Of a stretch of 64,000 nt of DNA, positions 4,253 through 50,027 are shown piece by piece (positions within the stretch are counted from its first letter, which is position 1; every line of letters starts with the position of its first letter). The position numbers were made by a program, and so were the translations under genes. The stretch spans positions 954,617 to 1,018,616 of the forward strand of contig CP064974.1 in NCBI GenBank assembly GCA_016699385.1, given 5' to 3'. This DNA comes from Candidatus Moraniibacteriota bacterium. GTDB lineage: Bacteria; Patescibacteriota; Minisyncoccia; Moranbacterales; UBA1568. The notes below the pieces were generated by a model. That model was not told where the DNA came from. It made no database searches and saw only the letters and a list, made by a program, of their open reading frames with translations.

Positions 4253-6217
4253 GTGAACAAAAGTAGTAAAACAAAAAAAACTCTCTTGTTTCGGGCTTCT
4301 CTTTTTGTGAGAAGTCATCCAGCTCTGCTCCTTGTGGTACTTGTAGGGTGTTTTTTGTTGACGCCAAACATGCATGTAGTGCAGGCTGGTAGTTTTTTGG
4401 ATTTAGTAACAACGCCGAGCGCGTGGATTAATGCGCTTATATATCCTTTCTTTTTGTTTTTTTCATGGATTGTAAATCTTGCTGCAGGGATTTTTGTTTG
4501 GGTTATCAATGCGACAACGTTTACAAAACTCATGAATGCGGGGGCCATCTATGAGGTGTGGCTTATTGTTCGAGATTTTCTGAATATATTCTTTATACTC
4601 GTACTTCTTTTCTCGGCATTTGCTACGATATTTCAACTCGATAGATATGAATACAAGAAAACGATTCCCATGTTGGTTATTATGGCGCTTTTGGTGAATT
4701 TTAGTTTTCCTATTGCGCGTTTTGTGATTGATTTGGCAAATGTGCCAATGTATTTCTTTTCACAAAACATATTTGGAGTGGATGGGCCTAACGAGATTAC
4801 CTCTGGAGTATTGAGTGGGACAAAGATGCAAAATATTCTTATACCAGGAATTAATGATGATAAGTCATTGGTAGATTTTAGTACAACCCATCTCCTTGCA
4901 GCGACCATCTGTATGTTTTTATTTGGTATTTCTTTCCTTGTTTTGTCAGTGTTGATGTTGGTTCGTATGATAGCGCTTGCTATTTTGGTGATGTTTTCAC
5001 CAATTGGATTTGTAGGGATGATTACACCGGCGTTGCAAGGTTTTGCGAAGGGATGGTGGGATAAACTCTTTAAGTGGGCGTTCTATGGTCCAATAGCAGT
5101 CATGTTTGTGTTGGTGTCGGTAATTGTTATGAAGTCTGCTGGAGACTCAATATATCCAACAGCGGGTGCTGGAGGGGTATTTCAATCCACGGGAAATTCC
5201 GTGAATGATAATATGATATCTGCTGTTGCCTTCTTTACTATCCCAATAGTGCTTTTTTGGATCGCTATTACCTCAGCAGAGAAATATAGCAATGATATGT
5301 CAGGTATGAGTGTGAAGTTTGGGTCGCAACTAGGGAGAAAGGCTGGGGGATGGGTAAGAAAGGGCGCTTGGGGAACTACGAAGTGGGCTGCAAAGGCTCC
5401 ATTGAAAGCGATTGATAATGTTACCCAAAATAGAATCTCCGGAACTACTCTTGGAATTCGTGATGCTTGGAGGAATAGGCAGTCTGCATGGTGGGGTGGG
5501 AGTGATATTGAGAATCGAAGAAAGAAAGTTTCTGATGATGTGGCATCTTCATTGAAACGCAAGGGAACGAGTACTCAAGAGGTTCAGAAGAAAGTTGCTG
5601 AACATGAAAAAGAAAATACTACTGAGGCAGATTTGAGGGAGCTTGTTAGAAAAAATGGTGATATTGCTGCTGCAATGGTGCTTGTGAAGCAAGGGAAGTT
5701 GACGGATGAGGAGTTTGCAAAGGTCCGAGTTGACCTTGATGATACTAAGGATAAAGCCTTAGTTGATCTTCTTGAAGGAAAAGTAAAGGAGAAGCGGATT
5801 GATTTGGTTATGAATTATAAGATTAACCAGGAAGCTACTGAATTAATGAAAAGATCTCCTGGTATGTCGAGGGAGGCGGCATTGGCTCGTGTTGGGGAGT
5901 CGGTAGCAGAAAAAGAAATCAAGAAATTAGCGCCAAGTAAATGGAAGGAGCAGAGTTTGAAGGATTGGTTTAGTCTTAAGGATGCTGCTGGAAAGGAAAT
6001 CGACTATGACATTGATGATTCAACTGGTGTGATTGAAGTGAAAGATAAAGTTACGGGTGCAGTTATTCACTCAGAAGGAGCGGAAATTTTGAGGGCGAAG
6101 GTTGCAGCTGCTCGAACCACATTTGGTTCATATCATGGTAAAAATAAGGATAAAGCAATTGATGATATGACTGGAGAGAAATTCACAATAGGGCAGGATT
6201 TGAAGATTTTTGTGTAA
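4253..6217 (+). CDS. VirB6/TrbL (PrgH/TcpH)-like polytopic membrane protein of a Gram-positive-type T4SS. It has a long charged coiled-coil C-terminal domain.
   Basis: After a signal-like N-terminus (KSSKTKKTLLFRASLFVRSHPALLLVVLVGCFLL) there are about 8-9 hydrophobic helices over ~370 aa. The last ~300 aa are K/E/D-rich. It sits immediately upstream of PrgI-like and VirB4 genes. Start is uncertain: GTG near 4253, GTG near 4307 or ATG 4370 (the ORF-track start at 4175 is a GTG upstream of the predicted promoter). Confidence 0.55.
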   Translation: MNKSSKTKKTLLFRASLFVRSHPALLLVVLVGCFLLTPNMHVVQAGSFLDLVTTPSAWINALIYPFFLFFSWIVNLAAGIFVWVINATTFTKLMNAGAIYEVWLIVRDFLNIFFILVLLFSAFATIFQLDRYEYKKTIPMLVIMALLVNFSFPIARFVIDLANVPMYFFSQNIFGVDGPNEITSGVLSGTKMQNILIPGINDDKSLVDFSTTHLLAATICMFLFGISFLVLSVLMLVRMIALAILVMFSPIGFVGMITPALQGFAKGWWDKLFKWAFYGPIAVMFVLVSVIVMKSAGDSIYPTAGAGGVFQSTGNSVNDNMISAVAFFTIPIVLFWIAITSAEKYSNDMSGMSVKFGSQLGRKAGGWVRKGAWGTTKWAAKAPLKAIDNVTQNRISGTTLGIRDAWRNRQSAWWGGSDIENRRKKVSDDVASSLKRKGTSTQEVQKKVAEHEKENTTEADLRELVRKNGDIAAAMVLVKQGKLTDEEFAKVRVDLDDTKDKALVDLLEGKVKEKRIDLVMNYKINQEATELMKRSPGMSREAALARVGESVAEKEIKKLAPSKWKEQSLKDWFSLKDAAGKEIDYDIDDSTGVIEVKDKVTGAVIHSEGAEILRAKVAAARTTFGSYHGKNKDKAIDDMTGEKFTIGQDLKIFV

Positions 6218-25696: not shown

Positions 25697-25869
25697 AGGA
25701 CACTGTCTGATGCAAAAAGTATTTCGAAGTGTACCAAAAGGGAGAAAAAAGTCAAACGGTCGAATTATCCACAGGTTGTGCACAGCCCTTTTTACAAGGG
25801 ATATCGAAGTGGTGTAGTGTGGAGAAGTGAACAACAATTTCTGTGGAAAAGTGGGGAACGAACCGTGTT
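25697..25869. other. Candidate oriC (rpmH-dnaA intergenic) with DnaA boxes
   Basis: Perfect TTATCCACA at 25765..25773, plus TGTGGAAAA (1 mismatch to TGTGGATAA) at ~25838. Divergent gene orientation flips here. The AT-rich dnaA-dnaN spacer (27433..27513) could hold the unwinding element. Confidence 0.6.
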
Positions 25870-27432
25870 ATGAAGTATGAAGAACTCTGGAAAGCAGTCT
25901 TAGGGGAATTGGAACTGTCTGTTTCGAAGGCAAACTTTGAGACATGGCTTTTGAATACAGAGCTTGTATCTATCGAAAACAGCATTGCGCGCATTGCGGT
26001 GGGAAGTCCTTTTACCAAGGAATGGCTGGAGAATCGGTATAATCACATTATTCTTCAAGCACTTCAAAAACAAGATTCGTCTATTCGCGAGATTTCCTGC
26101 TTCATCCGTACATCAACGGATTCGACTCAGAAGATTTCTCCCGCTCCTTCTACTCATACTGTGGAAGTATCTCAATCAGTGGCGCCGGATTCGTCGGAAA
26201 ATTCGCCTTCTCTTCATGTGCATCACACAGAAAAAACATGGGAAGATAACATTGTTTCTCATGACGGTATGAAGAGAGAAATTTCCCCGGAGGCATTGCC
26301 ATCTTCAACGAGGATGTCTCTGGGAGTGTTGCCGGTTCACCCAATAGTTGGTGTTGGTCAGGACAGCCCTCTTCCAGTGTCTGCTCCGATGGTTTCGCAT
26401 CGACCAGTGACATCCAATCTTAATCCTCGCTATACGTTTGAGAATTTCATCATCGGAGAGAATAATGAGTTGGCGCGCGCGGCGTCGTTTGCCGTATCGC
26501 AGAGTCCGGGGACGCTCTACAACCCACTCTTTATCTATGGCGTTGTTGGTGTTGGAAAAACACATTTATTGCAATCGATTGGCAATGAGGCGCGCCGCAA
26601 TCATCCGGACATGGTTGTGCGATATACAACCTCTGAGCAGTTTACCAATGAGCTCATCAATCATATCAAGAATCAGACCATGGAGGACTTCAAGCGATCA
26701 TACCGGGAGATTGATATACTCCTCATTGATGATGTGCAGTTTCTCTCTGGTCGTGAGAAAACGCAGCAAGAATTTTTTCATGTTTTCAATAATCTCCATC
26801 AGCTCAATAAGCAGGTGGTGATTACGAGCGATCGAACGCCACGAGCGATTCCGACTATCGAAGATCGACTGAAGAGTCGCTTCGAAGGCGGTATGATTGC
26901 CGATGTGAGTCGCCCTGATCTCGAGACACGCATGGCGATACTGCGACTCAAATTACTCGAAAAGGGCACAACGCTCGAAGAGGATTGTATTCGTTTCATT
27001 GCGGAAAATATTACTAACAATGCCCGTGAGCTTGAGGGCGCACTCAATCGCGTGCTCGTCTCGGCGGAATTTCAGAAAGTTCGCCCAACGCCTGCCTATG
27101 TCGCCAAGGTGCTCGGACAAATTATCACCGCACACAAACAGACGGTGACGCTTGAGAGTATTACAAAGATTGTCGCGGAGTTCTACAATGTTCCCGAAGA
27201 AGAATTGTACAAAAAAGGGCGCAAGAAAGAGATTGCCCTCGCGCGCCAGACGGCGATGTATCTCGCGCGCACTGAGCTCGACGTTTCACTTTCTGGTGTC
27301 GGTAAGCACTTTGGCGGGCGCGATCATACGACAGTGCTTCATGCGGTTGATCGTATTCAAAAAGATATGGAGAAAGACGGTCATTTCAAAGAAGACATGG
27401 TCAGCTTGCGAGAACGACTGTATCGGGAATAA
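25870..27432 (+). CDS. dnaA: Chromosomal replication initiator DnaA
   Basis: N-terminal MKYEELWKAVLGEL. AAA+ Walker A NPLFIYGVVGVGKTHLLQSIGNEA and Walker B ILLIDDVQFL. C-terminal DNA-binding domain (KKEIALARQTAMYLARTEL...LHAVDRIQ). Confidence 0.95.
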   Translation: MKYEELWKAVLGELELSVSKANFETWLLNTELVSIENSIARIAVGSPFTKEWLENRYNHIILQALQKQDSSIREISCFIRTSTDSTQKISPAPSTHTVEVSQSVAPDSSENSPSLHVHHTEKTWEDNIVSHDGMKREISPEALPSSTRMSLGVLPVHPIVGVGQDSPLPVSAPMVSHRPVTSNLNPRYTFENFIIGENNELARAASFAVSQSPGTLYNPLFIYGVVGVGKTHLLQSIGNEARRNHPDMVVRYTTSEQFTNELINHIKNQTMEDFKRSYREIDILLIDDVQFLSGREKTQQEFFHVFNNLHQLNKQVVITSDRTPRAIPTIEDRLKSRFEGGMIADVSRPDLETRMAILRLKLLEKGTTLEEDCIRFIAENITNNARELEGALNRVLVSAEFQKVRPTPAYVAKVLGQIITAHKQTVTLESITKIVAEFYNVPEEELYKKGRKKEIALARQTAMYLARTELDVSLSGVGKHFGGRDHTTVLHAVDRIQKDMEKDGHFKEDMVSLRERLYRE

Positions 27433-27513
27433 GGGGAAAAGTCCGAGGCATTTGTATTCAAAAAATTCTTATATCATTCGAAATTTAGCATTTGTAATTT
27501 GTATGTAGTGCCT

Positions 27514-28653
27514 ATGAAACTCATGTGTACGCAAGAAAATCTGAAGCGAGCGATTAGTGCAGTGGAGCGGGCAGCGGGAAGGCAGAGTGCACTTCCGGTC
27601 TTGGCAAATGTGCTCATCGAGACAGAGTCGGGGCGACTCAAGCTCTCGGCGACCAATCTCGAAATTGGCATTGTGGCGCGAGTTGGCGCCAAGGTGGAGA
27701 GTGAGGGGAGTCTTACGGTGCCAGTTAAGGTACTCTCGCAGTTTGTGGGGAATCTCCCAGGGACAGAGGTGGCGACGCTCGAGGAAGTGGCGCAGTCACT
27801 TTCTATTTCCTGCGGCGGGTACAAGGTGAAAATAAAAGGACTCCCTGCCACGGATTTTCCAATTATTCCCGCCAAGAAGAATACTAAATCTATAGAGCTC
27901 CCGGCGCAGGCATTTCGGATGGCGCTCTCGAGACTCTTGCCGTGCGTTGCAACGCAAGAAACGAGATTAGAATTGACAGGTGTCAATTTCCTTTTTTCTG
28001 AAAAGGAACTTGCGCTTGCAGCGACAGATAGCTTTCGTCTGGCGGAGGAAATTCTCCCGCTCGAAAAGTTTCTCGAAGAAGACTTGCTCGCCGAAGTGAG
28101 TGCCTCAGGATCGCTCATCCTTCCGGCAGCAACTCTTATGGAAGTATCTCGCGCCATCAGCCCGACACAGAAAACCATTTCCATGACGCTTGATGAGAAT
28201 CAGGTCTTCTTTGAAATGGAAGGCATCGAGGTTATTTCGCGACTTATTCTCGGGAAATTTCCCGACTATAGACAGATTATGCCGCAAGAATTTTCTTTTT
28301 CTGCTGTGATTGAGAAAGAAGCTTTCTTGCGTTCGCTCAAGATTGCGACCGTGTTTGCGGCGGGAGAGATTGCTGTCGAACTTGCTTCCGATGATGGCAA
28401 AGTGCTTGTTGAGGCAGTGTCGAGTGGTGTCGGGGAACAACAAGCAGAAGTTCCGGCGAAGTTTCTTTCTGGAAGCGGACGGCTTCGCGTGGTATTTCCG
28501 CCCAAATCACTCCTTGATGGTGTCGGCTTTATGGAGACGCCGTCTGTTGCGTTTCGCGGGAATACTACAGGGACACCAGTCGCGCTCACAATGACTGATG
28601 AGGATGTGCCTCGCGCCAGCTTTACGTATATCATGATGCCGATACAGAAATAG
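27514..28653 (+). CDS. dnaN: DNA polymerase III beta sliding clamp
   Basis: MKLMCTQENLKRAISAVERAAGRQSALPVLANVLIETESGRLKLSATNLEIGI is the canonical DnaN N-terminus. Three-domain length, directly downstream of dnaA. Confidence 0.9.
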   Translation: MKLMCTQENLKRAISAVERAAGRQSALPVLANVLIETESGRLKLSATNLEIGIVARVGAKVESEGSLTVPVKVLSQFVGNLPGTEVATLEEVAQSLSISCGGYKVKIKGLPATDFPIIPAKKNTKSIELPAQAFRMALSRLLPCVATQETRLELTGVNFLFSEKELALAATDSFRLAEEILPLEKFLEEDLLAEVSASGSLILPAATLMEVSRAISPTQKTISMTLDENQVFFEMEGIEVISRLILGKFPDYRQIMPQEFSFSAVIEKEAFLRSLKIATVFAAGEIAVELASDDGKVLVEAVSSGVGEQQAEVPAKFLSGSGRLRVVFPPKSLLDGVGFMETPSVAFRGNTTGTPVALTMTDEDVPRASFTYIMMPIQK

Positions 28654-37001: not shown

Positions 37002-37952
37002 TTAGAGTGAGGAGAGTTTCTCTTGAAAGACTGCTAAAAGCGCGTGATACATTTTTTCCATACTGGGTCTTTCTTCGGGCGTGAAATAGAGACCAGGCAT
37101 GGAGTTGAGTTCAACAATCCATGGGAATCTGTTTTTGTCGAACATGATGTCGATTGTATAAATCTTTGGTTGAAATGATGAAAAGATTGATTGTGCTCTA
37201 TCAATAATCGGACGGACTGATTGAGGAATATCCTTGTTGTGAATAATCCTTAAACTCCCTCCTTGAGCGAGATTAGCAAGAAAGCTCCCAGATTTTGGCT
37301 CACGTATATAGGCGTATATTATGGCATCGTTAACGAGAATTATACGGAAATCATGCATTTTTGATGATATGTTCGGCACGCCATGGGAGGAATCTATAAA
37401 ATCTTGAATGATATGTTCACCTGAAAATGATATGTCTTTTGCATTTTCTTTTTCAAAAATTTGAATCCCTTTTCCTCCGCTTTCGTTTATCGGTTTTAAT
37501 ACAACTTTTTCTGTTGTAATTTCGGAAATATTTTTTTGAAGCTCTGTCGGATTTCTAACGAGTATGCTTTTCTTGCTCCATTCCTGGAAGAGTAAACTGG
37601 AAAGAAATTTATCATCAATTATTCGAGTAAAGTGCAAATCGTTTATGAAGGAATAGTGCATTCCGATAGATTCTTTTTTGTAGGATGATTCTGCATGACT
37701 TCTTGTCTTGTCGTAGATAATATCCGGAATTATGTCGTGGACACGTTTCCATTGATTATCTTCGTATGTCCATGCGTGACGGAATATATTTTTCTTGTAA
37801 TCATACCACTGGTAGGATGCGCGGTACATCTGAATTCCTCCCTGCTTGCAGAGAGAATAGAATAGTTCGTAAGAATATTGGCGCCCCCTATCGTTAAACG
37901 GAACTTTATTTTCCCAATTGCTTTTCCCGAAGAGGAGGAGTACTTTTCTCAT
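37002..37952 (-). CDS. ATP-grasp family ligase (YheC/YheD- or RimK-like). Strongly AT-rich gene.
   Basis: VLKPINESGGKGIQIF, DFRIILVNDAIIYAYIR and IVELNSMPGL are the ATP-grasp large-domain motifs. It is the last gene of the 4-gene minus-strand operon. Composition is visibly AT-richer than its neighbours. Confidence 0.6.
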   Translation of the reverse strand: MRKVLLLFGKSNWENKVPFNDRGRQYSYELFYSLCKQGGIQMYRASYQWYDYKKNIFRHAWTYEDNQWKRVHDIIPDIIYDKTRSHAESSYKKESIGMHYSFINDLHFTRIIDDKFLSSLLFQEWSKKSILVRNPTELQKNISEITTEKVVLKPINESGGKGIQIFEKENAKDISFSGEHIIQDFIDSSHGVPNISSKMHDFRIILVNDAIIYAYIREPKSGSFLANLAQGGSLRIIHNKDIPQSVRPIIDRAQSIFSSFQPKIYTIDIMFDKNRFPWIVELNSMPGLYFTPEERPSMEKMYHALLAVFQEKLSSL

Positions 37953-37971
37953 AGAAAATTTCTCTGAAGTT

Positions 37972-38895
37972 TTATGAAGAATGTGCTGTAAATTCCAAAT
38001 TAGACATTATGTAAAGAACATTTCGGTGCTCTTCACTGGAAAGGCTTTCTGTTTTTGTTGCCCTTCTCAAGTCACGTATGTATCCTAATTTTTTAGAGAA
38101 ATTTTCAACACATTCTTCCTGTATTGCTTTGAGGAGAGCTGACTGTGTTTGACAGAGCTTTGCTGCAACAAGAAATTCTACTTTGTTGTCTAAAGATATT
38201 ATAGGGAAATGCTTCTCAAGAATTTCCTCACACAAGTAAATTATGGATTGGTATATATCGGTGTTTTCTTGTAGGGGTTTTTTGTTGTAGAATTCTGACT
38301 CTCCAATAATGCAGTGTGTGAAATAGTAAAGACTTAGTTCGGCGTATTCGTTTGTATCAGGATAGTGTTTCTCGGCGATATGAAGGAGATTTTCAGGGTG
38401 AAACAGTGTAGAATCTTGCAAGATTCCCCTGGTAAGGTAGAGGAAATTTATACCGAGTGTAGAGAGTGCTATGAGTGAATGAGGATCATTGAGAAGTGTC
38501 TTTGCATAGAATTGAAGGATATCTTTAGGTATCGCAAGAAGAACTCTCTCTCGGATGTCAACTCTAAAAATGGTCTTTAGAAATAACCACTTGAAAAGTA
38601 GCGCATTGTATTGGGTAATCCAAGGATATTTTTCGAGCGCGAATTGTCTTTGATGTAGAAATCTTCTTGAGTGTTCTGCAACAGGGTTCTTTACGTTCTC
38701 TAGGATTTCTTCAATGTTTTCAAGAAAAAAATCTTTTAAAGAAATTAATCTTTTCTCATAGCAGGACTCTTGTGTCCATAGAAATAATCTCGAGTTGAAG
38801 TGGAACTGCTTGGCTTTTGAAAGCGATTCCATGTTATCGCAATAAGTTTTCAGAACTTTTTGTTGAATAGACTTCGTGACTTCCCTTGGAGACAT
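37972..38895 (-). CDS. Hypothetical protein (307 aa), AT-rich. It sits inside the ATP-grasp operon. No signal peptide and no recognised motif.
   Basis: Open frame in operon context: 19 nt upstream of the next gene, 11 nt downstream of the previous one. Confidence 0.5.
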   Translation of the reverse strand: MSPREVTKSIQQKVLKTYCDNMESLSKAKQFHFNSRLFLWTQESCYEKRLISLKDFFLENIEEILENVKNPVAEHSRRFLHQRQFALEKYPWITQYNALLFKWLFLKTIFRVDIRERVLLAIPKDILQFYAKTLLNDPHSLIALSTLGINFLYLTRGILQDSTLFHPENLLHIAEKHYPDTNEYAELSLYYFTHCIIGESEFYNKKPLQENTDIYQSIIYLCEEILEKHFPIISLDNKVEFLVAAKLCQTQSALLKAIQEECVENFSKKLGYIRDLRRATKTESLSSEEHRNVLYIMSNLEFTAHSS

Positions 38896-38906
38896 AGAAT
38901 GATTTT

Positions 38907-40316
38907 TTATTTCGTTACGTCCACTAAAAACTTCCGTAGATTCTTTTTTCCAATAATAACGGGATAGTCTAATTCCGAACGGTCGATGAGGGTAACTTTT
39001 GTGAGGATAACAAACGAATTTATGACAACTTGTATTTCTATCTTAATTCGATACGTGGTGCCATGCGAAGACTTTACTGGGACAGATGAAACAACATTCG
39101 GAATTCCCTCGAACATTTTCCATCGTGTTTCACGGTCGAGTGCAGAGAGGTTCCCCCATGTTTTTTGCGCACTCTGATAGCCATCCACAGTTTCCCCAAA
39201 TCCCAACTCTCGTGCAAGCTCGGTATCAATCGAGGTGGAGTCGGCGCCGGTGTCTATTTTTGCTTCAACTTCTATTTCTTTGCCGTTTTTGCCGATGAGT
39301 TTCACTTTTTCTACGGTGCCAATGATTTTCTTGCCGGAGATTTCCTCAAGTTCTTCTTCAATCTCGCCACCGAAGAGATCCATGCCCATACGTAAACCCT
39401 TCTCGACGGTTTTGATGGTGAGTCCTGAGACGCGCTCGAGTCGACCTTTTAGTCCATCAAGGTTGGCGACTTGTATCGAGAGTCCCGGGCGAGCATTTAG
39501 TTCGAGGAAGACTGGGCCGCGATCGCGATCGATAGCGACGTCAGCGCCGAGGAATCCGAGTCCGGAGACTTGCTGTGCTTCGATCGCCATTTTGAGGATA
39601 TCTTTCCAATAGGGGATGCGGATACCAGAGAGGACAAGTCGGGTGCCGGGGATGTTCTCGATGATGCGATTCTTGCCCCAGACGGCGGTTGTTGTTGTCC
39701 CGGAGGCGAGGTCTATGCCGACGCCGATTGCGCCCTGTTGGAGGTTGGCGCGTCCGCCGGACTCTTTGGTTGGGAGGCGGAGCATCGCCATGACGGGCAC
39801 CTTGTTGTAGATGACGATGCGAATATCAGGGACGCCCTTGAAGGTGTATGGCTTGAAAAGTTTGAGGAGTTTCAGTCGCTCTTCAAAGAATGCGGAGTCG
39901 GGGATATTTGCGAGTGAAAAGGAACCATCGAGAATATTTCGGATATGTGTTTTCAAATCTTCAATTGTAACAAGGGATCCGTCTGCCTTGATCCAGGTGT
40001 GCTCGGTATCCTTTTTCTTCCCATAGACGACGATGATTCCTTCGCCGCCAAAGCCGTGATTTGGCTTTAGGGCAAAGCTCCCAGGAAGGGATGACCAGTC
40101 GAAATTCTCGATCTCGTGTGCATCTTTGATACGAGCAAGGAGGGCGGGAACAGGGAGCTCATGCTTGGTGAGGAGTCGCTTGCACGCCATTTTGTCGTCG
40201 GCGAGACGCTTTGCTCGGCGCTTGTTGTAAGGGCGCAGATAGTCGAGATTGCGTGCATTCATGCCGAGAATATCCCGACTTCTTTTCCAGGCTTCGAGAA
40301 AGTGGAACATAGACAT
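38907..40316 (-). CDS. Fusion protein: RimK-related alpha-L-glutamate-ligase-like ATP-grasp (N-terminal) plus a retropepsin-like 'putative ATP-dependent zinc protease' domain (C-terminal)
   Basis: The N-terminus RDILGMNARNLDYLRPYNKRRAKRLADDKMACKRLLTKHELPVPALL matches the RimK-related E-ligase family signature. The C-terminal ~130 aa carry AKIDTGADSTSID ... LIDRSELDYPVIIGKKNLRKFLVD, the aspartic-protease D-T-G-A motif and fold signature of the PF05618-type domain. Confidence 0.7.
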   Translation of the reverse strand: MSMFHFLEAWKRSRDILGMNARNLDYLRPYNKRRAKRLADDKMACKRLLTKHELPVPALLARIKDAHEIENFDWSSLPGSFALKPNHGFGGEGIIVVYGKKKDTEHTWIKADGSLVTIEDLKTHIRNILDGSFSLANIPDSAFFEERLKLLKLFKPYTFKGVPDIRIVIYNKVPVMAMLRLPTKESGGRANLQQGAIGVGIDLASGTTTTAVWGKNRIIENIPGTRLVLSGIRIPYWKDILKMAIEAQQVSGLGFLGADVAIDRDRGPVFLELNARPGLSIQVANLDGLKGRLERVSGLTIKTVEKGLRMGMDLFGGEIEEELEEISGKKIIGTVEKVKLIGKNGKEIEVEAKIDTGADSTSIDTELARELGFGETVDGYQSAQKTWGNLSALDRETRWKMFEGIPNVVSSVPVKSSHGTTYRIKIEIQVVINSFVILTKVTLIDRSELDYPVIIGKKNLRKFLVDVTK

Positions 40317-40319
40317 TTC

Positions 40320-40973
40320 CTATGATTTCAACAATTTCGAAAACCGCAGGTATTCCGAAAGACGTAATCCTCTCCATCGACCGAGGAAAATATTGACCGG
40401 AATCGTGAGGAGGACAATCCAGGGTGAGAGGAGGAGGATACTTGCAAGTACCTGAGAGCGCGCGAGGAAATACCCGATGAGAGAGATAAAGAGCGTCTCG
40501 GTGGCGAGAATGAGTGCGGTTTTGTCACCTTTTTCGATTTGCGTGGCGACAAATTTCTCGACCAGGGTAATCATGATGAGGAGCGGAAAGATAGAGACGG
40601 AAGCGAGTCCGGTGCGATGGAGGTAACCGCCGGCAACGAGTATGCCAAGGATAACGATGGCGACGATAGTGAGGGTAATCGCGACGCGCGGGAGATAGAG
40701 GAGGCGGAGTCTTCGGAGGAGGAGTCGCGAGAGCATGCCAATTAAGATGATGCTCACAAAGATGGCGATGCCGTATTTGAGTCCGCCCGGATCAAATGCA
40801 AGAAAGGCAAAGGTGACAATTGATGGCGTGTAGATGCCAAATGCCTTGATACCGACGACTTGTCGGAAAAAGGCGACGAGTGTGACGATGAGTGGGAACA
40901 TGAGTATGTACCGAATTGTATCGATGGGAACTCCCTGGTCGATGAAGTTGAGAAAGAGAGGGTGGAGAGACAT
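40320..40973 (-). CDS. Seven-TM membrane protein, the first gene of the ATP-grasp operon. It is the candidate 7TM partner known from RimK-like peptide-ligase systems.
   Basis: 217 aa with seven evenly spaced hydrophobic helices. The stop is 3 nt before the next gene's start. Confidence 0.5.
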   Translation of the reverse strand: MSLHPLFLNFIDQGVPIDTIRYILMFPLIVTLVAFFRQVVGIKAFGIYTPSIVTFAFLAFDPGGLKYGIAIFVSIILIGMLSRLLLRRLRLLYLPRVAITLTIVAIVILGILVAGGYLHRTGLASVSIFPLLIMITLVEKFVATQIEKGDKTALILATETLFISLIGYFLARSQVLASILLLSPWIVLLTIPVNIFLGRWRGLRLSEYLRFSKLLKS

Positions 40974-43593: not shown

Positions 43594-44607
43594 CTACAAG
43601 AGTTTCTTTGCATGTTCTTCGGGGGGAGTTTTACCAAGGTGCGTGTAGGCTTCTGGTGTCGCGACTCGGCCGCGGGGGGTGCGGGTGAGGAGTCCGAGCT
43701 GGATGAGGAAGGGTTCGTAGACGTCCTCAATGGTTTCGCGCTCTTCGCTCGTTGCGGCGGCGATGGTTTGGACGCCGACGGGACCGCCGGAAAATTTGTC
43801 AATCAATGTAGAGAGAATGTGTCGGTCGGTCGGCTCGAGTCCAAGATGGTCTATCTCGAGAAGACTGAGCGCCTCAATAGCGACGTCTCGAGTGATGATT
43901 TCGACATCTCGAGTTTGCGCGTAGTCGCGGACGCGTTTGAGGAGACGATTGGCAACTCGAGGGGTGTGTCGGCTTGCCTGGGCAATCCGCTCTGCGCCGG
44001 AGGGGTCGATGCCAATATCAAGGATGCGACTCGATCGCGTGAGGATGCGAGTTATCTCTTCCTCGGTATAAAATTCGAGGCGATGTACGGAGCCGAAGCG
44101 ATTGCGAAGCGGATTGGAAATGGAGCCGAGCCGAGTGGTTGCGCCGATCAGGGTGAACTTGGGCAAGTCGAGCTGGATGGTGCGCGCTGAGGGACCCTTC
44201 CCGATGATGATATCGAGCTTGTAGTCTTCCATTGCCGGGTAGAGAACTTCTTCGATGAGTTTGTTGAGACGGTGAATTTCGTCGATGAAGAGCACGTCGC
44301 CATTTTCGAGGTTTGTGAGGATTGAGCCGAGGTCTCCGACACGCTCAATTGCGGGACCGCTCGTCACTTTCATCCCGACGCCCATTTCTTTGGCGATGAT
44401 ATGAGAGAGTGTTGTCTTGCCCAGGCCAGCCGGACCATAGAAGAGCACGTGCTCCACAGGGTCGCCGCGTTTGCGTGCTGCCTCGATAAATATGCCGAGG
44501 TTTCGTTTGATCTTTTCTTGCCCGATATACTCGCTGAAGCCCTGTGGGCGGAGTGTTGTATCGAGCACGGGATCGTCGGCCTTGGCAGTGGAAGAGGTAA
44601 GAGTCAT
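43594..44607 (-). CDS. ruvB: Holliday junction branch-migration ATPase RuvB
   Basis: [58 protein letters not shown]...LFIDEIHRL... The ORF-track ORF has a 73-codon spurious extension. Start set at [13 protein letters not shown] (44607). Confidence 0.9.
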
Positions 44608-44892
44608 AAATGCGTATTTCACGCCAGTATACCCCCTGTTGACAAAAAATAAAAGCCATGCTAACATTGCCAGTTCCGCTGTGTTTCTGCTCGTTGACAA
44701 TATAGTAGGAGTAATCGCTTGTATATGGCGCTGCGCACTTTCCAATGTCGATGTGCGTAGTACCAGCACAGCACAACAGACTCGCCCGTCTGTAGACAAT
44801 TGGGGGCTTCTATCTTTTGTCCTCAATCTTGGGAGCTTTCGCCCAGATCGGGTGGAAGGGTTTCGGCTCTTCCATTCCTCGACACCGTTCCT

Positions 44893-44942
44893 TCCCTCGG
44901 GGATTTATTTTCGAGGATTTGTCTACAGGCTGGCGGGGATGT
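44893..44942 (+). repeat. 50-bp direct repeat, copy A, upstream of ORF 44979
   Basis: CCCTCGGGGATTTATTTTCGAGGATTTGTCTACAGGCTGGCGGGGATGT is identical to 45995..46044. Both copies sit 35-40 nt before an SD and an ATG. Confidence 0.8.
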
Positions 44943-44978
44943 GTCTCGTCTTTCAAAGTTTTACGAAAGGAGGTGGTG

Positions 44979-45397
44979 AGATGAGTGCTCGTGAAATAAG
45001 GCAGGCTATTCGTGGCGCAGTACTGTCGTCTGTGAATAGGATCAATTTATGTGGTGATCGCATATTTCAGATGAGTTGGGATAGCGACTCCGCAAATATT
45101 CTGAAATGCTTACTCAAAAATGATATCGTTAAGGAACGATACGTTCGTGAGCAACTGGACATTCGATTAAAAGCACTGGGTCGTTCCTGTTTTGAGCAAT
45201 ATAAGCGTGGCAAATACCCAGATCGTGTACTTTCGCCACAAGCTCTCGCATATGCGCTTCAGCATGGAGAATTCACTCCGGAAGAAAAAGCTGTCATACG
45301 GTTTAATCACGGTGATACAAAAGGGACATTTGTTCGAACATTTAATAGGGATGATCAGTTGCTCCAAAAGGTGTTTGACCAACTAATCTCTACGTAA
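44979..45397 (+). CDS. Hypothetical protein (139 aa)
   Basis: An AGGAGGTG SD 6 nt upstream of the ATG. Protein-like composition (MSAREIRQAIRGAV...). Preceded by the 50-bp repeat. Confidence 0.5.
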
Positions 45398-45489
45398 TTT
45401 TGAACAATTTCTAACTTCTTGTTAAAAGCGAATATTCTATCCAAAATAAGAATATTTGCTTTTTTCTTTCTCAAAATCTTTCCAAATCT

Positions 45490-45540
45490 TTACGGATGCA
45501 CGACACAGAGGACTTCGTCGAGGGAATTTTCTTTGCTGTT
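45490..45540 (-). pseudogene. Remnant of a PilB/GspE-family gene 3' end (last ~16 codons plus stop)
   Basis: The minus strand translates to ...SKENSLDEVLCVVHP*. Compare the intact C-terminus of the adjacent ATPase gene, ...EGETSLDEVLRVVHP* (46989). Nucleotide identity is ~75% over 65 bp with 46965..47030. Confidence 0.6.
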
Positions 45541-45994
45541 TTCCCTTTATTGCGCTACAATCAAGCTATGCAGAACTGGTCAACCGATATCGCTGAACTC
45601 AAAAAAGATCCGGAGCAATACGCGCTGTGGCGTCTTGAGCATTTGGTGAATTTTGGTCTGGGCGGAGAACGAATCGATTAAAAAGAATTTCGGAAGTATT
45701 GGAGCAAAATGACTTTGGATCCGAACAAAAAAATTACCTCACTCTGCTTTTATGGCCGAAACAATCCTGAGCGAAAATCAAAGAAAAGTTTTGGAAGCAG
45801 TGAGTATGAATCCGATGGTGTGTGAAAACTTTCACTTGATTGAAGGATTATCAAGTAGTGAAGGCTTCTTCTTCAAGATATAAGGTATTCATTCTTGACG
45901 GAATACGAATTCCGCGTTATTGTGGAGTGTCGTTCTTTGAGGTCTTGGTAGGGAGTACATTAACAAAGCGGATGTATGGAACGATAGATGGTAC

Positions 45995-46044
45995 TCCCTC
46001 GGGGATTTATTTTCGAGGATTTGTCTACAGGCTGGCGGGGATGT
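45995..46044 (+). repeat. 50-bp direct repeat, copy B
   Basis: Identical 49-50 nt to copy A. Followed by a GGAGGAT SD and ATG at 46080. The downstream reading frame appears disrupted. Confidence 0.8.
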
Positions 46045-46330
46045 TTGCCTTTCTTAAAAATGTATTGGAGGATATTGAAATGAAAAGTCTGCATGACATG
46101 AATGGGCTGTCGAACAGATTGCGGAGGCGAAAAAATTGGATAGGGGTGTCTATGCGCGGTTTTTCGGGGCAGAGATCTGGGTGTTTTCTTGGGATACACC
46201 GAAAGATGTCGCTGATCGCATTTTCTCTGTATCACGAGAGAAGTCGGTGGAAGATCAATCGACCCATGAAGTGCGATTGAAAACTCGCTATGGGAGCTGA
46301 ACTATTGCCCTTTTGGGCGGAGGTGATGTG

Positions 46331-46894
46331 ATGAATAAAAATTGGGTTCCGGTGTGGACGCTTTTTCATGGGGATCAGCTGCGAAGACAGGAAAGTGAAA
46401 TCGAGTATTCCGGGGAGAAGTGCTGGATAAAAGGTATAGGATCCTCGCAACATTTTTGGATTTGTATACCAAACAAGAAGCTTTTGCCTCATGCTCACAT
46501 ATTCCTGTTTCACGGAAGCTTTGTCCCATTTGGAATGAGTCCTCGGGTTAAGGAGTTGTCTTGGTGTTGGTGTAGCGACCTTGAGCAGAGGGATTTTCCG
46601 ATTGTTCATAATGATGAAATGCTCTACAGTGCGACGACGAGTAAGCAAAGTGCATCTCCTTTAAATTTCAAGGGAGTTGATACACGCCTTTTTGGATTCA
46701 GTGGATTGAGAAGATTAAGTCATGAAAACGGAAGGCTTACGCATCAAAGTATGTACACACTTGCTCTGGCGATTCCAAGAGGTGATGAGTGTATGGTTAT
46801 TCTCATGTTTCGAGAGCGATCGCTTCAGCCTATATATCGTATGGTTCGAAGTCTGCCGAAAGAGGTAATTGTTGAAACGGCAAGTAGCTATTGA
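46331..46894 (+). CDS. Hypothetical Trp/Cys-containing protein (187 aa)
   Basis: A GGAGGTGA SD 4 nt before ATG 46331 (MNKNWVPVWTLF...). No recognised domain. Confidence 0.4.
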   Translation: MNKNWVPVWTLFHGDQLRRQESEIEYSGEKCWIKGIGSSQHFWICIPNKKLLPHAHIFLFHGSFVPFGMSPRVKELSWCWCSDLEQRDFPIVHNDEMLYSATTSKQSASPLNFKGVDTRLFGFSGLRRLSHENGRLTHQSMYTLALAIPRGDECMVILMFRERSLQPIYRMVRSLPKEVIVETASSY

Positions 46895-46988
46895 TGGATA
46901 AACGTCGGTCGCTACGTGCAAGTCTTGTTTAAATTCAAAAAGCCGACGCAGTGCGCCGGCTTCTAACTTTCTCAAAGTTCTCCATTTG

Positions 46989-49900
46989 TCATGGATGCAC
47001 CACGCGCAACACTTCGTCGAGAGAGGTTTCGCCTTCGAGGGCTTGGAGGACGCCGTCCATGAGCATGGTGATCATGCCGTTTTGTATGGCTTTTTCTTCG
47101 AGTTCGATATTGAGGGCACCACTCATGATGAGATGCTGAATCTCTTTGTCGAGTTCTAACACTTCGCTCAAGACGAGGCGTTTTTTGTATCCGGTGCCGT
47201 TGCACTTTTCACAACTCCCAGCGACCCAGTGCTCGCTAGGGATTTCCGGCACGACAATCGCAGATTTCTCATTGAACATGCCGAGGACTTTTGAGACGGT
47301 TTCACGAATCTCCCCATCGAGAGGTGCCTTCTTCTTGCAGTCGCAGAGACGGCGGACGAGGCGCTGCGCCATGTAGGTGCCGCCGGCATTGACGATGTCG
47401 TCGGGGCGCACGCCCATGGAAATGAGGCGTGGGATGCTTCCGGCGGCGTTGTTGGTGTGGAGGGTGGCGATGACGAGGTGTCCTGTGAGCGCGGCCTGGA
47501 AGGCTATTTCGGCGGTTTCGTCGTCGCGGATTTCGCCAATCATGACGATGTTGGGGTTCTGGCGCAGGAGTGAGCGGAGAGCGGACGAGAAGGTATAGCC
47601 GCCCTCTTCGTTTACCTGCGTCTGCAGAATTCCGGAAAGTTGATATTCTATCGGGTCTTCGACGGTGATGATTTTTATCTCCGGCGTTTTGACAAAATCA
47701 ATCAGGCTGTAGAGGGTTGTTGTCTTGCCGCTTCCGGTAGGACCGGTGTTTAAGATGATGCCGGTTGGTCTCTTGACACCGTCCAAGAGGTGGTGGAGCG
47801 TTTGCTCGCGGATGCCGATCGTATGAATGTCGAGTGCGACTGCGCCGCGATTTAAGAGTCGCATCACGACGGTTTCGCCGAAGCCGCCGAGAATGATAGA
47901 GACGCGAATGTCGAATTTCTGCTCGCTCGTTCCGGTAAGGGGTGATTCGGTCTTGACCATGAATCGACTATCTCGAATGCCGGCGCGCTCTTCGGTACGG
48001 AGTCCGGAGAGCAGTTTAATATCACCGAGAATCGATGGATATTCATTCATGGGGAGTGTTGCGACAGTTTGGAGGACGCCGTCGATACGGAAGCGAACAT
48101 CGACGGAATTTTCCTGCGGTTCGATATGAATGTCATTGGCATTGGTGATGAGTGCGCCGGAGAAAATATATTTGAGTGCTTCGCGTTGCTCAGCTTCTTC
48201 GACGAGCGCGCTGAAATGTTCGAACGAGTCGAGGCTCTTCTCTGTCTCCTTGAGAATCATGTCTTCAATCGGGAAGGCGCGGGCAAGTGTTTGTGACATG
48301 AGTTCGTCGTACATGTCTTCGAGGAATTCGGTTTGTCCGGTGACGCGCCAGACTTCATCGAGCGAGGTGTCACCGGTAATCGCCTTCAAGATGCCGTCTT
48401 GCGCCATGGTGACCATGCCATCCTCGAGAGCCTCTTTCATGATGTCGTTCTCGCTTGCGAGCGAGACGATTTTTTCAGTGATAGCATCGGAGATGGTGAG
48501 GACCTCGAAGATACCAATACGACCTTTGTAGCCAGTACCATTGCAATGAAGACATCCCTTTGGTCTCCAGAGACTCTGTATTTCCTTTGGAATGTCTATC
48601 TTTGCTTTGGGGGAGATGAGTGAAAGTATCTCTTTGAGGGAATTCGATGTTTCTTTGGCGGGTTCGTAGGATTCTTTGCATTCGGGACAGAGGATGCGGA
48701 CAAGGCGCTGAGCGATGAAGGCGTTTACGGCATTGGGAATCGTATTGGGACGCACACCCATTTCGATGAGGCGCGCAACACTGCCAGCGGCGTTGTTGGT
48801 GTGGAGAGTCGAGAGGACGAGGTGACCGGTGAGCCCGGCATTCACGGCGATATTCGCAGTTTCGTCATCGCGGATTTCACCGACCAGTATCACATCCGGA
48901 TCCTGACGGACGATGGAGCGAAGTCCCATGGCGAAGGTATAGTTCCGACTTCTTGATACCTGTGTCTGTGTAATGTTGGGAATTTCATATTCTATCGGGT
49001 CTTCGATAGTGATGATTTTTGTTTCGGGAGTGTTGAGCTTGCGGAGTATGGCGTAGAGGGTCGTGGTCTTGCCGCTTCCTGTGGGGCCGGTATTGAGGAC
49101 GATGCCAGTTGGCTTTTGGAAGGCGCGCTCGACTTGTTCGTAGGCGAGACCGCGGAGCCCAAGTATGGAGATATCTTGCAGGGCGGTTTCTTGATCGAGG
49201 AGTCGCATGACGAGACTCTCGCCGAAGTTGCCCGGTATACTCGAGACGCGGATGTCTATTTTCCGTGAATCGAGATTGAGCGAGAAATGCCCGTCTTGGG
49301 ATTTGTCTCGGATATTGAGTTTCATTTTTCCAAGCATCTTGACGCGCGAGAGGAGGAGAGGATAGATACTCCCGGGAAAGCGCCCAATGTCTTGGAGGAC
49401 GCCGTCGATTCGGTAGCGAAGTCGAATCTCATTTTTTTCTTCCGGTTCGAGATGAATGTCGCTTGCGCGGAGTTTGATGGCGCCGACCATGACGGTTTCG
49501 AGTACCTGCGTTGTGGGAATTTCGAGAATGCGATTTTTGAGGGCGAGAAGATTGCCAAATTCTTGTTCGAATTTTTCTAGGTCATTATCAGAGAGATTGA
49601 CTTTGAGATGATCGAGATAGTCGAGGAAGAGTGGTTTTTTGTAGACATTCCAGGCGTGTTCGAGTGAAGGACGTGAAGCAACATAAAGCTTGGCAGTAAG
49701 TCCTTCACGCTCTTCGAATGCTCGGAGATAGTCGAGTGCTTTTTGGTTATCGGGGTCGAGAATGGCGACGCGAATTTCTTTACCCCGTTTTTGAAAAAGG
49801 GCGATGCCAAGTGATGTGGCGTCTCCTTCGGGAATGATTGATGCACGCTCTGTGTCGATGGGGAAAATATGCAAGTCAACGTAGGGGAGCCGCGCTCCAT

Positions 49901-50027
49901 GAGCGAGCGCAGCGGCTTCGCTTTCTTCCGAAGAACGCTTGAGGGTGGTGAGAATTTTGGCGGTTTGCTGTTCGCGTTCGTCACGGAAATCTGCGGGTGA
50001 GGCATTGCGAGGAAGAACTTTGACCAT
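46989..50027 (-). CDS. Tandem-fused double PilB/GspE-family secretion/pilus-assembly ATPase (1012 aa; two complete ATPase units in one polypeptide)
   Basis: Unit 1 (residues ~1-600): a GspE-N-like domain, Walker A GPTGSGKTT, a His box, a CPECK...CLHCNGTGYKGR tetracysteine, GDTSLDEVWRVTG. Unit 2 (residues ~600-1012): a second GPTGSGKTT, VEDPIEYQ, CDCKKK...CEKCNGTGYKKR, GETSLDEVLRVVHP. Continuous ORF with no internal stop. Confidence 0.8.
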   Translation of the reverse strand: MVKVLPRNASPADFRDEREQQTAKILTTLKRSSEESEAAALAHGARLPYVDLHIFPIDTERASIIPEGDATSLGIALFQKRGKEIRVAILDPDNQKALDYLRAFEEREGLTAKLYVASRPSLEHAWNVYKKPLFLDYLDHLKVNLSDNDLEKFEQEFGNLLALKNRILEIPTTQVLETVMVGAIKLRASDIHLEPEEKNEIRLRYRIDGVLQDIGRFPGSIYPLLLSRVKMLGKMKLNIRDKSQDGHFSLNLDSRKIDIRVSSIPGNFGESLVMRLLDQETALQDISILGLRGLAYEQVERAFQKPTGIVLNTGPTGSGKTTTLYAILRKLNTPETKIITIEDPIEYEIPNITQTQVSRSRNYTFAMGLRSIVRQDPDVILVGEIRDDETANIAVNAGLTGHLVLSTLHTNNAAGSVARLIEMGVRPNTIPNAVNAFIAQRLVRILCPECKESYEPAKETSNSLKEILSLISPKAKIDIPKEIQSLWRPKGCLHCNGTGYKGRIGIFEVLTISDAITEKIVSLASENDIMKEALEDGMVTMAQDGILKAITGDTSLDEVWRVTGQTEFLEDMYDELMSQTLARAFPIEDMILKETEKSLDSFEHFSALVEEAEQREALKYIFSGALITNANDIHIEPQENSVDVRFRIDGVLQTVATLPMNEYPSILGDIKLLSGLRTEERAGIRDSRFMVKTESPLTGTSEQKFDIRVSIILGGFGETVVMRLLNRGAVALDIHTIGIREQTLHHLLDGVKRPTGIILNTGPTGSGKTTTLYSLIDFVKTPEIKIITVEDPIEYQLSGILQTQVNEEGGYTFSSALRSLLRQNPNIVMIGEIRDDETAEIAFQAALTGHLVIATLHTNNAAGSIPRLISMGVRPDDIVNAGGTYMAQRLVRRLCDCKKKAPLDGEIRETVSKVLGMFNEKSAIVVPEIPSEHWVAGSCEKCNGTGYKKRLVLSEVLELDKEIQHLIMSGALNIELEEKAIQNGMITMLMDGVLQALEGETSLDEVLRVVHP

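Follow-up and report, generated by a model that had tools for sequence, protein, structure and literature searches.

The interval between ruvB and pilB in a 64-kb stretch of a Candidatus Moraniibacteriota genome (contig CP064974.1; the whole stretch is called the window here, and all coordinates are window positions) raises two questions: how did an identical sequence of 50 nucleotides (nt) come to stand twice in this interval, each time in front of a different small gene, and why do the last codons of pilB recur there in degenerate form? The interval runs in the order ruvB, a 276-nt intergenic stretch, repeat copy A, open reading frame (ORF) A, a hairpin, a remnant of the pilB end, a pseudogene remnant termed Z, repeat copy B, ORF B, ORF C, and pilB. 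We found that the repeat is the 3' module of a larger conserved structured RNA, consisting of its last hairpin (P5) and the 3' strand of its closing stem (P1), and that related strains carry the same locus with or without the second module copy. How the duplication of the module arose we infer from a comparison of these loci, which, like the contigs of related strains, are given L-numbers. The reading that we favor, with moderate confidence, is an insertion at the 3' end of the RNA gene with regeneration of the target, in a two-step process that would have left two stacked haplotypes in the window.

The 50-nt repeat and the structured RNA gene

The 50-mer TCCCTCGGGGATTTATTTTCGAGGATTTGTCTACAGGCTGGCGGGGATGT was found exactly twice in the window, at 44893-44942 (copy A) and 45995-46044 (copy B), both times on the plus strand; in a shuffle control, a match was found in 0 of 100 cases. 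The similarity between the copies extends to 65 nt at 89%, and beyond this the flanks fail to align on either side. Both copies stop 35 to 38 nt short of a start codon preceded by a Shine-Dalgarno (SD) sequence, i.e., the ATG at 44981 (ORF A) and the ATG at 46080 (ORF B). An earlier note on this DNA had described an identical 49- to 50-nt repeat at these two places, each copy upstream of the SD and ATG of a different ORF, and was right in both respects.

The larger element to which the repeat belongs became apparent from its second half (44919-44942), which a repeat finder returned as the inverted complement of 44776-44799. Folding of 44770-44985 gave a four-way junction closed by P1, with a minimum free energy of -88 kcal/mol (z = -4.2), and 0 of 200 shuffled sequences were as stable. 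The structured core (44776-44942, plus strand) comprises P1 (44776-44799 with 44919-44942), P2, P3, P3b, P4 with a UUCG loop, and P5. The RNA has about 170 nt, its structure is strand specific and rich in G-U pairs, and the closing stem measures about 22 bp (21 to 23 bp with RNAalifold, which predicted P1, P2, P3, P4, and P5). When nine sequences were aligned, with a slightly refined structure, 95.9% of the cells were paired, and five pairs were altered on both sides (11 cells), whereas sliding the partners by -3 to +2 columns, as a control, gave no such pair. From this alignment, we built a covariance model (R1), which scored 196 bits on the plus strand of the window versus 20 bits on the minus strand and found the copy in L023 with 111 bits (E = 2e-31). 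The L023 copy differs at many stem positions and has an extra hairpin of about 70 nt; folded alone, it forms P1-P2-P3(P4)-P5 with a z score of -8.3. The RNA core of the window is 94 to 96% identical to that of L011, L014, and L017 (96% for L017), whereas the ruvB and pilB DNA is only 78 to 80% identical there.

The RNA is preceded by a sigma-70-type promoter (44639-44667, plus strand) with TTGACA, a spacing of 17 nt, TAACAT, and a TG before the -10 hexamer (10 of 12 matches in a promoter scan). The -35 box TTGACA and the sequence TGnTAnnnT are kept in all relatives, including L023. Between promoter and core lies a 5' leader of variable length (44675-44775, plus strand), made up of a conserved TGTTTCTGCTCnTTGACAA box followed by one or more lineage-specific hairpins; its length varies from about 10 nt in L011 to about 75 nt in the window. 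When the window was compared with the close strain L001, the region from the promoter to the stem contained dense substitutions, all of them transitions, and in the list of mismatches two leader pairs had changed on both sides (44754/44768, U-A to C-G; 44750/44772, G-C to A-U).

At the other end of the RNA, a U-run directly follows P1 in the single-copy loci, namely, GGGGATGGTTTTTT in L014 and GGGGATGTTTTTG in L010 and L016; L019 has one as well. A U-run after P1 was also seen in L005/L015, L020, L023 (UUUUUU) and at copy B of the window, and it is missing at copy A of both the window and L011. Because the U-run has stayed at copy B, transcripts that start at the RNA promoter probably extend into ORF A, and by this read-through the first gene of the insert probably gains expression.

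Rfam 15 gave no match in the window at gathering thresholds, and only chance matches of 12 to 19 bits were obtained with 44550-46150 at E ≤ 10. In the literature, we found no comparable RNA described for Patescibacteria or the candidate phyla radiation (CPR). The RNA gene is regarded as real because of its stable fold, the compensatory changes, the strand-specific score of the covariance model, the fold of the L023 copy, the conservation of the core, and the conserved promoter. With a conserved promoter, a structure that shows covariation, and a terminal stem followed by a U-run, 44776-44942 is a well-supported candidate for an undescribed, independently transcribed structured RNA and may represent a new RNA family without an Rfam counterpart in Patescibacteria/CPR.

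The motif NTGT(T/A)GACAA(A/T) occurs four times around the RNA gene: in the -35 box (44636-44645), in a conserved box 50 nt downstream (44691-44700), in the 5' arm of P1 (44788-44799), and, inverted, in its 3' arm (44915-44928). This may be a protein-binding site present in several copies, or the resemblance of promoter and stem sequences may be fortuitous.

The two module copies relate to this RNA in different ways. Copy A contains P5 (44895-44916) and the 3' strand of P1; because it is contiguous with the remainder of the RNA, it can be addressed as the regenerated target. Copy B is an orphan 3' module without a partner for the 5' arm of P1 upstream, and it is followed by a U-rich stretch and ORF B. 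One might argue that the RNA is a cis-acting 5' leader of the downstream genes, similar to a riboswitch or attenuator, and that copy B is a partial leader kept to regulate ORF B and ORF C. The first downstream ORF is indeed co-oriented in every lineage and lies 27 to 75 nt after the element, and P1 with the U-run could serve as a terminator. However, riboswitches have switching stems of 4 to 8 bp, and the stability of the 22-bp closing stem is far above theirs. The genes downstream come from unrelated families (A and C, described below, and a 141-amino-acid [aa] ORF), which argues against the logic of a gene-specific ligand, and copy B lacks the 5' arm, so that it cannot form the structure. 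Moreover, a leader function addresses the role of the RNA and leaves the duplication unexplained. We consider this explanation unlikely.

Occupied and empty sites in related strains

An assembly artefact can be ruled out for the arrangement, because the independent SPAdes contig L001 (ENA ERZ15185891) is collinear with 43751-47420, without gaps and with 98.6% identity. Relatives were reached via PilB homologues of graded identity (L010 [CP064989.1], 90%; L018, 88%; L011, L014, L017, and L019, 85%; L020, 82%; L023, 63%); L015, L016, and L017 were added by a DNA pattern from the 3' arm and L005 by a scan of a genome collection. The order ruvB-RNA-pilB is kept in L010, L011, L014, L017 to L020, and L023, and wherever ruvB and pilB adjoin, the interval opens with the same promoter and the same core of about 165 nt. 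A second, orphan copy of the module was present in two sampled lineages only, that of the window with its close strains (L001 and L006 to L009) and L011, and lies 0.93 to 1.1 kb downstream of the first copy. A single copy was found in L010, L005/L015/L016, L014, L017, L018, L019, L020, and L023.

The comparison with an empty site, which the earlier note had proposed, was possible with L011 on the one hand and L014 and L017 on the other, which are about 96 to 98% identical over 17 kb. The interval of L011 exceeds that of L014 by an insert of 932 nt, which has the 46-nt module at either end; the flanks are 90% (left) and 99.65% (right) identical. Because strains of such high identity differ by exactly the insert plus one module copy, L011 and L014 are an occupied/empty pair. 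In the window lineage, an insert of about 1.1 kb immediately adjoins the final nucleotide of the RNA, and the orphan module copy comes behind this insert. On the right, the duplication ends with the final RNA nucleotide in both two-copy lineages (GGGGATG, ±1 nt). Z lies directly upstream of copy B in the window as well as in L011; the two versions are 83% identical over 203 nt and have in-frame stops at different places.

The two module copies of a genome are identical in the window and agree at 45 of 46 positions in L011. Two positions differ between the lineages, and at these the two copies within a genome agree. The divergence between the window and L001 is mosaic: it amounts to 3.8% in ruvB and 5.8% in 44617-44892, followed by 1 substitution per 2,100 nt from the first base of copy A onward. 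The last mismatch upstream of this block of near identity is at 44888.

In the insert of L011, the 8-mer ACATGTCC stands 2 nt after copy A and about 5 nt before copy B. In a circular form of the insert, it would stand on either side of the 46-nt module; the 8-mer may be the arm site of a recombinase or a chance occurrence.

Further module copies were found neither elsewhere in the window nor in any of the relatives' loci that were retrieved. Scanning of a genome collection, to which the source genome does not belong, with a degenerate pattern of the 3' arm gave three matches, one of which, L005, was a true homologue. A metagenome search with the pattern GATTTGTCTACAGGCTGGCGGGG gave no match; this pattern missed the relatives because they carry a C for the T of the window in GAT. 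Two scans of viral contigs were negative. The contig of L005 (CAYQPQ010000008.1) is titled "uncultured Bdellovibrionales bacterium"; it has the full RNA at 5047-5220 and pilB near 7150 and is nearly identical to L015 and L016, and it was probably mis-binned, or its metagenome-assembled genome (MAG) misclassified. The Logan contigs L002 (which starts at window position 44912) and L012 (at its end) break 31 to 32 nt inside the module, as expected, since an assembly graph with a k of 31 meets a repeated 50-mer at this point. The break suggests, indirectly, that the L012 genome, which has the same PilB as L011, is also a two-copy genome.

A regenerated target plus a displaced fragment is the signature of islands in tRNA and transfer-messenger RNA (tmRNA) genes (tDNA islands, compiled in the Islander database) (PMC4383910). 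As in tDNA islands, the direct repeat at the locus studied here makes up the 3' part of the gene for a structured RNA and extends from the base of the last hairpin to the 3' end of the gene, one copy restores the gene while the other is displaced to the far end of the insert, and occupied and empty sites are found in close strains (932 nt plus the 46-nt repeat in L011 versus L014/L017). Unlike in tDNA islands, the target is neither a tRNA nor a tmRNA and belongs to no Rfam family, and the insert is only about 1 kb long, has no integrase, and consists mostly of same-locus DNA of other strains plus a pseudogene. With ARAGORN, no tRNA or tmRNA genes were found in the window. The comparison suggests that the logic of tRNA/tmRNA islands, insertion behind a structured RNA gene with restoration of its 3' end, extends to another kind of RNA gene in these small genomes.

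The repeat had also been likened to a conserved cassette leader. Indeed, a conserved promoter precedes it and variable genes follow it, but it is the 3' end of a structured RNA, is confined to this locus in the window and in all loci retrieved, and is absent between tandem C-family genes. In an integron-like cassette array, the 50-mer would be the recombination or leader site before each mobile cassette, and a dedicated recombinase would shuffle the cassettes. This would account for the different ORFs that follow the element from genome to genome (ORF A, ORF B, the 141-aa ORF, a 49-aa ORF, and C-family genes), for the strong conserved promoter upstream of it, and for the hairpin that it contains. 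The locus resembles an integron array in its fixed platform with a promoter, which is followed by variable orphan ORFs, and in the repeated structured site that precedes these ORFs. It differs in that the window and the retrieved loci contain two copies at most, all of them at this place, tandem paralogues follow each other without a site, no intI-like gene was found among the neighboring ORFs scanned, and the GTTRRRY/RYYYAAC cores of attC sites are not visible in the sequence. In addition, the platform is an RNA gene, and the full element is the 170-nt RNA with its strand-specific structure rich in G-U pairs. Of all the explanations considered here, we give the cassette array the least credence.

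The pilB 3'-end remnant and the origin of the insert

The remnant of pilB (45458-45531, minus strand) comprises the last 13 codons plus the stop codon (45490-45531) and 32 nt of the region downstream. It reads ENSLDEVLCVVHP before the stop, and the true pilB end reads ETSLDEVLRVVHP before the stop. The degenerate copy of the pilB 3' end that had been noticed earlier is therefore real: it is 76% identical to the resident end over 38 nt, with 18 nt past the stop at 83%, and the differences are mostly synonymous. With the pilB end of L017, a genome of the A type (see below), the identity is 85% over 74 nt. The longest exact run common to the remnant and the resident end, ACTTCGTCGAG, has 11 nt and lies in codons whose amino acids are nearly invariant among the pilB genes compared.

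The gene next to the remnant points in the same direction. ORF A (44981-45397, plus strand; 138 aa) is a short member, without an N-terminal hydrophobic segment, of what we call the A family; it is 42% identical over 106 aa (E = 3e-25) to the A-family proteins encoded beside pilB in L011, L014, and L017. An A-family gene is the resident neighbor of pilB in L011, L014, L017, L018, L019, and L020, and these proteins have about 180 to 190 aa and a hydrophobic N-terminal segment. Judged by these affinities, the remnant is a foreign pilB allele, linked to ORF A, from an alternative haplotype. ORF C (46331-46894, plus strand; 187 aa), in turn, belongs to a small, fast-evolving C family, genes of which are resident beside pilB in L010 and L016. 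In some cases, two paralogues stand there in tandem without an intervening repeat; the identity of the paralogues in L010 and L016 is 24 to 32%. No homology was detectable between the A and C families. Thus, 44943-45535 looks like the right-hand part of an A-type haplotype and 45995-46988 like a C-type haplotype, with Z between them. Because the remnant and ORF A match the A type and the unit of module, ORF B, and ORF C is of the C type, the window appears to stack two haplotypes of a hypervariable interval.

The earlier note had read the pilB repeat as a possible sign of integration into the 3' end of pilB. An element of about 1.5 kb (45536-47030, with Z, copy B, ORF B, and ORF C) would then have integrated site specifically, supplied a replacement pilB end, and displaced the original end to 45490-45531, in agreement with the imperfect direct repeat of the pilB end, its mostly synonymous differences, and the lower GC content of 45.0 to 47.0 kb (0.39 to 0.46 versus 0.50 to 0.59 in the flanks). 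The pilB-end repeat resembles prophage e14 and phage 21, which insert themselves at the 3' end of icd and bring a new end for this gene, since here, too, the 3' end of a protein gene is present twice with mostly synonymous differences. However, the displaced copy should then be the resident allele, whereas the remnant is nearer to other lineages and is linked to a gene whose family normally neighbors pilB in those lineages. C-family genes stand beside pilB in L010 and L016 without a pilB-end repeat, an insert bounded by pilB-end repeats was found in none of the sampled relatives, and the shared core of just 11 nt is under coding constraint. Unlike in the icd prophages, the partial copy is foreign and lies inside an insert flanked by the RNA module, and no integrase was found in the ORFs scanned. 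We regard integration into pilB as very unlikely. What stands of the proposed inserted cassette is that the segment is rearranged and that 50-nt direct repeats flank an inserted block; the bounds of this block are copies of the RNA module and not the pilB ends.

Two simpler origins were considered and rejected. A single tandem duplication from the 50-mer to the pilB end does not fit, as the two repeat pairs differ in identity (100% versus 76%) and in spacing (1,102 versus 1,499 nt) and ORF A is unrelated to ORF B and ORF C. Retro-insertion of the 3' end of the RNA was rejected because the right flank of copy B is native downstream sequence, as seen from L011 versus L014.

In the reading that we favor, insertion at the 3' end of the RNA gene, a small Z-bearing element would first have recombined into the 3' module of the RNA and duplicated 46 to 50 nt of it. 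This step would most likely have been site specific, with a recombinase that is now lost or acted in trans, and Z would then have decayed to a pseudogene. In a second step, confined to the window lineage, DNA of an A-type haplotype (RNA, A-family gene, terminator, pilB) would have replaced the left part of the insert. One join would have been anchored by homology in the conserved ruvB/RNA region, and the other would have been an illegitimate join inside the donor pilB, 13 codons before its stop, leaving ORF A and the foreign pilB remnant behind. The result would be a tandem of stacked haplotypes, RNA-ORF A-pilB' followed by Z and by module-ORF B-ORF C-pilB. The second step would resemble homology-facilitated illegitimate recombination in natural transformation, in which one end is anchored, here in the conserved ruvB/RNA core, and the other is joined illegitimately, leaving a truncated donor fragment, here 13 codons of pilB; unlike that process, the one proposed here is read from the sequence alone.

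The chief rival, since a recombinase was not found and the cargo is mostly locus-native, is an accident without any mobile element. One unequal or illegitimate recombination between diverged ruvB-pilB haplotypes, for example, after DNA uptake, would have duplicated the module. Later differences in its presence would stem from RecA-dependent deletion between the 46- to 50-nt direct repeats and from allele replacement, and gene conversion would have kept the two copies alike. The cargo is indeed native to the locus elsewhere (the A-family gene and the pilB end), the ORFs scanned contain no recombinase, the common junction of Z and copy B in both two-copy lineages fits a single origin, and the mosaic divergence around the conserved RNA core looks as if crossovers resolve in the most conserved sequence. 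However, the duplicated piece is a structural module, from 2 nt before P5 to the last nucleotide of P1, which is not expected of a random breakpoint, and orphan copy B is still identical to copy A, while Z has diverged by 17% between the lineages. Moreover, upstream of copy B lies Z and not the 5' part of the RNA, which rules out that two RNA genes simply underwent unequal crossing over. We consider an accidental duplication possible, if on the whole doubtful.

Several observations weigh against insertion by site-specific recombination into the RNA gene. The scan for integrase, recombinase, and transposase domains, which covered the ORFs of the insert, ruvB, pilB, and 20 large ORFs between 25.8 and 63.7 kb, gave no match, so that the search for a nearby integrase, which the earlier note had recommended, came out negative. 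The insert, with 0.93 to 1.1 kb, is too small for a recombinase plus the present cargo, and this cargo is largely locus-native DNA of other strains rather than typical genes of mobile elements. The left edge of the duplication lies at the base of P5, with a shift of about 4 nt from the window to L011, and the ends of the RNA were placed by deduction from the promoter, stem P1, and the U-run. Finally, the sample contains just two lineages with two copies, both of which have Z; a single accident of ancient date that duplicated the module, with subsequent deletions between the repeats and gene conversion, could fit equally well.

A more far-reaching view is that the 3' module of the RNA is a docking site at which orphan genes of the A and C families and others are swapped under the strong promoter of the RNA, by a recombinase acting in trans or by transformation, as on an integron-like platform. 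We hold this to be decidedly unlikely. If it were true, an episymbiotic CPR bacterium would have a cassette platform next to its type IV pilus motor, and there could be a functional link between the RNA and the variable proteins, for example, in interactions with hosts or DNA that are mediated by pili.

CPR bacteria are believed to rely on type IV pili when they attach to their hosts and take up DNA. The locus, with fast-evolving orphan proteins encoded directly beside pilB, is therefore a concrete place to seek strain-specific functions in interaction or defense; the candidate RNA and the hypervariable locus beside pilB are, in our view, the most valuable outcome of the analysis.

Coding capacity of the interval and its surroundings

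The protein products of the interval have few relatives. In a word-indexed search for homologues, ORF A and ORF C matched only the clusters of their own strain. The sole database match of ORF A was the hypothetical protein IPJ67_04890 of a Candidatus Moraniibacteriota MAG. As deposited, IPJ67_04890 has 238 aa and, like the longest ORF (44471-45397, plus strand), runs through the RNA gene; it is plausible that the real protein is the 138-aa ORF A, which starts at 44981 with an SD sequence of its own. An AlphaFold2 (AF2) model of ORF A, calculated without an alignment, was unusable (predicted local distance difference test [pLDDT] score of 50).

Z (45568-45880, plus strand) contains in-frame stops and a frameshift. 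The several ORFs of 35 to 40 aa pointed out earlier at 45560-45840 are present, but the small ORFs at 45560-45880 are pieces of this pseudogene. An initial label for Z, "AbiEii-like," was dropped, since no tool supported it. ORF B (46080-46300, plus strand) is frameshifted, as had been supposed, by a tandem duplication of CATGA at 46092-46096; if repaired, it encodes 71 aa, and it is intact (71 aa), without the CATGA duplication, in L006 to L009.

An exhaustive search of 1.84 billion proteins gave 20 cluster representatives of the C family. The AF2 model of ORF C (pLDDT, 82) is all beta, and its fold had no match in the Protein Data Bank (best E = 0.26; template modeling [TM] score of <0.2). 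The ratio of nonsynonymous to synonymous polymorphism (pN/pS) of ORF C is 0.48 and comes from only 10 substitutions, so that the constraint between strains appears weak and is poorly resolved. In the comparison of the window with L006, pS was 0.030 in ORF C (46331-46894), about three times that of pilB (0.009 in 46989-49337); either the interval evolves faster or its history of recombination is different. No match was obtained with Pfam, NCBIfam, PADLOC, or PHROGs for ORF A, ORF B, ORF C, Z, the 141-aa ORF of L011, or the A-family protein of L014.

A hairpin between ORF A and the pilB remnant (45424-45463, strand not assigned) was read from the sequence and is also the perfect hairpin in the chance Rfam alignments; it is probably a bidirectional terminator. 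In L007 (1546-2857), the match to the window ends at 47423, inside pilB, and beyond this point follows unrelated sequence with ORFs of 190 and 168 aa that matches no other retrieved locus. The L007 scaffold is probably a chimera whose parts were joined at a conserved ATPase motif.

The interval is bounded by two conserved genes. ruvB (43594-44616, minus strand), the left flank, has the Pfam domains RuvB_N, AAA_lid_4, and RuvB_C; the listed ORF extends to 44826, and the start is probably the ATG that gives MTLTSS. The right flank, pilB (46989-50027, minus strand), encodes a tandem double T2SSE ATPase of 1,012 aa (Pfam T2SSE in two stretches, E = 2e-219). It has an internal repeat (47344-47919 versus 48688-49263) with a period of 1,344 nt, and the DNA of its halves is about 70 to 83% identical in patches. 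The fused double-ATPase PilB of 1,005 to 1,012 aa is kept across homologues of Moraniibacteriota and Moranbacteria. dnaA and dnaN (25843-28650) lie about 19 kb upstream of the locus, and the hypervariable interval is therefore near the likely origin of replication. A RimK/ATP-grasp cluster with DUF3541 and a 7TM transglutaminase-like protein (37002-40973, minus strand) lies beside ruvC, yebC, and ruvB and is kept in L010, L011, and L014.

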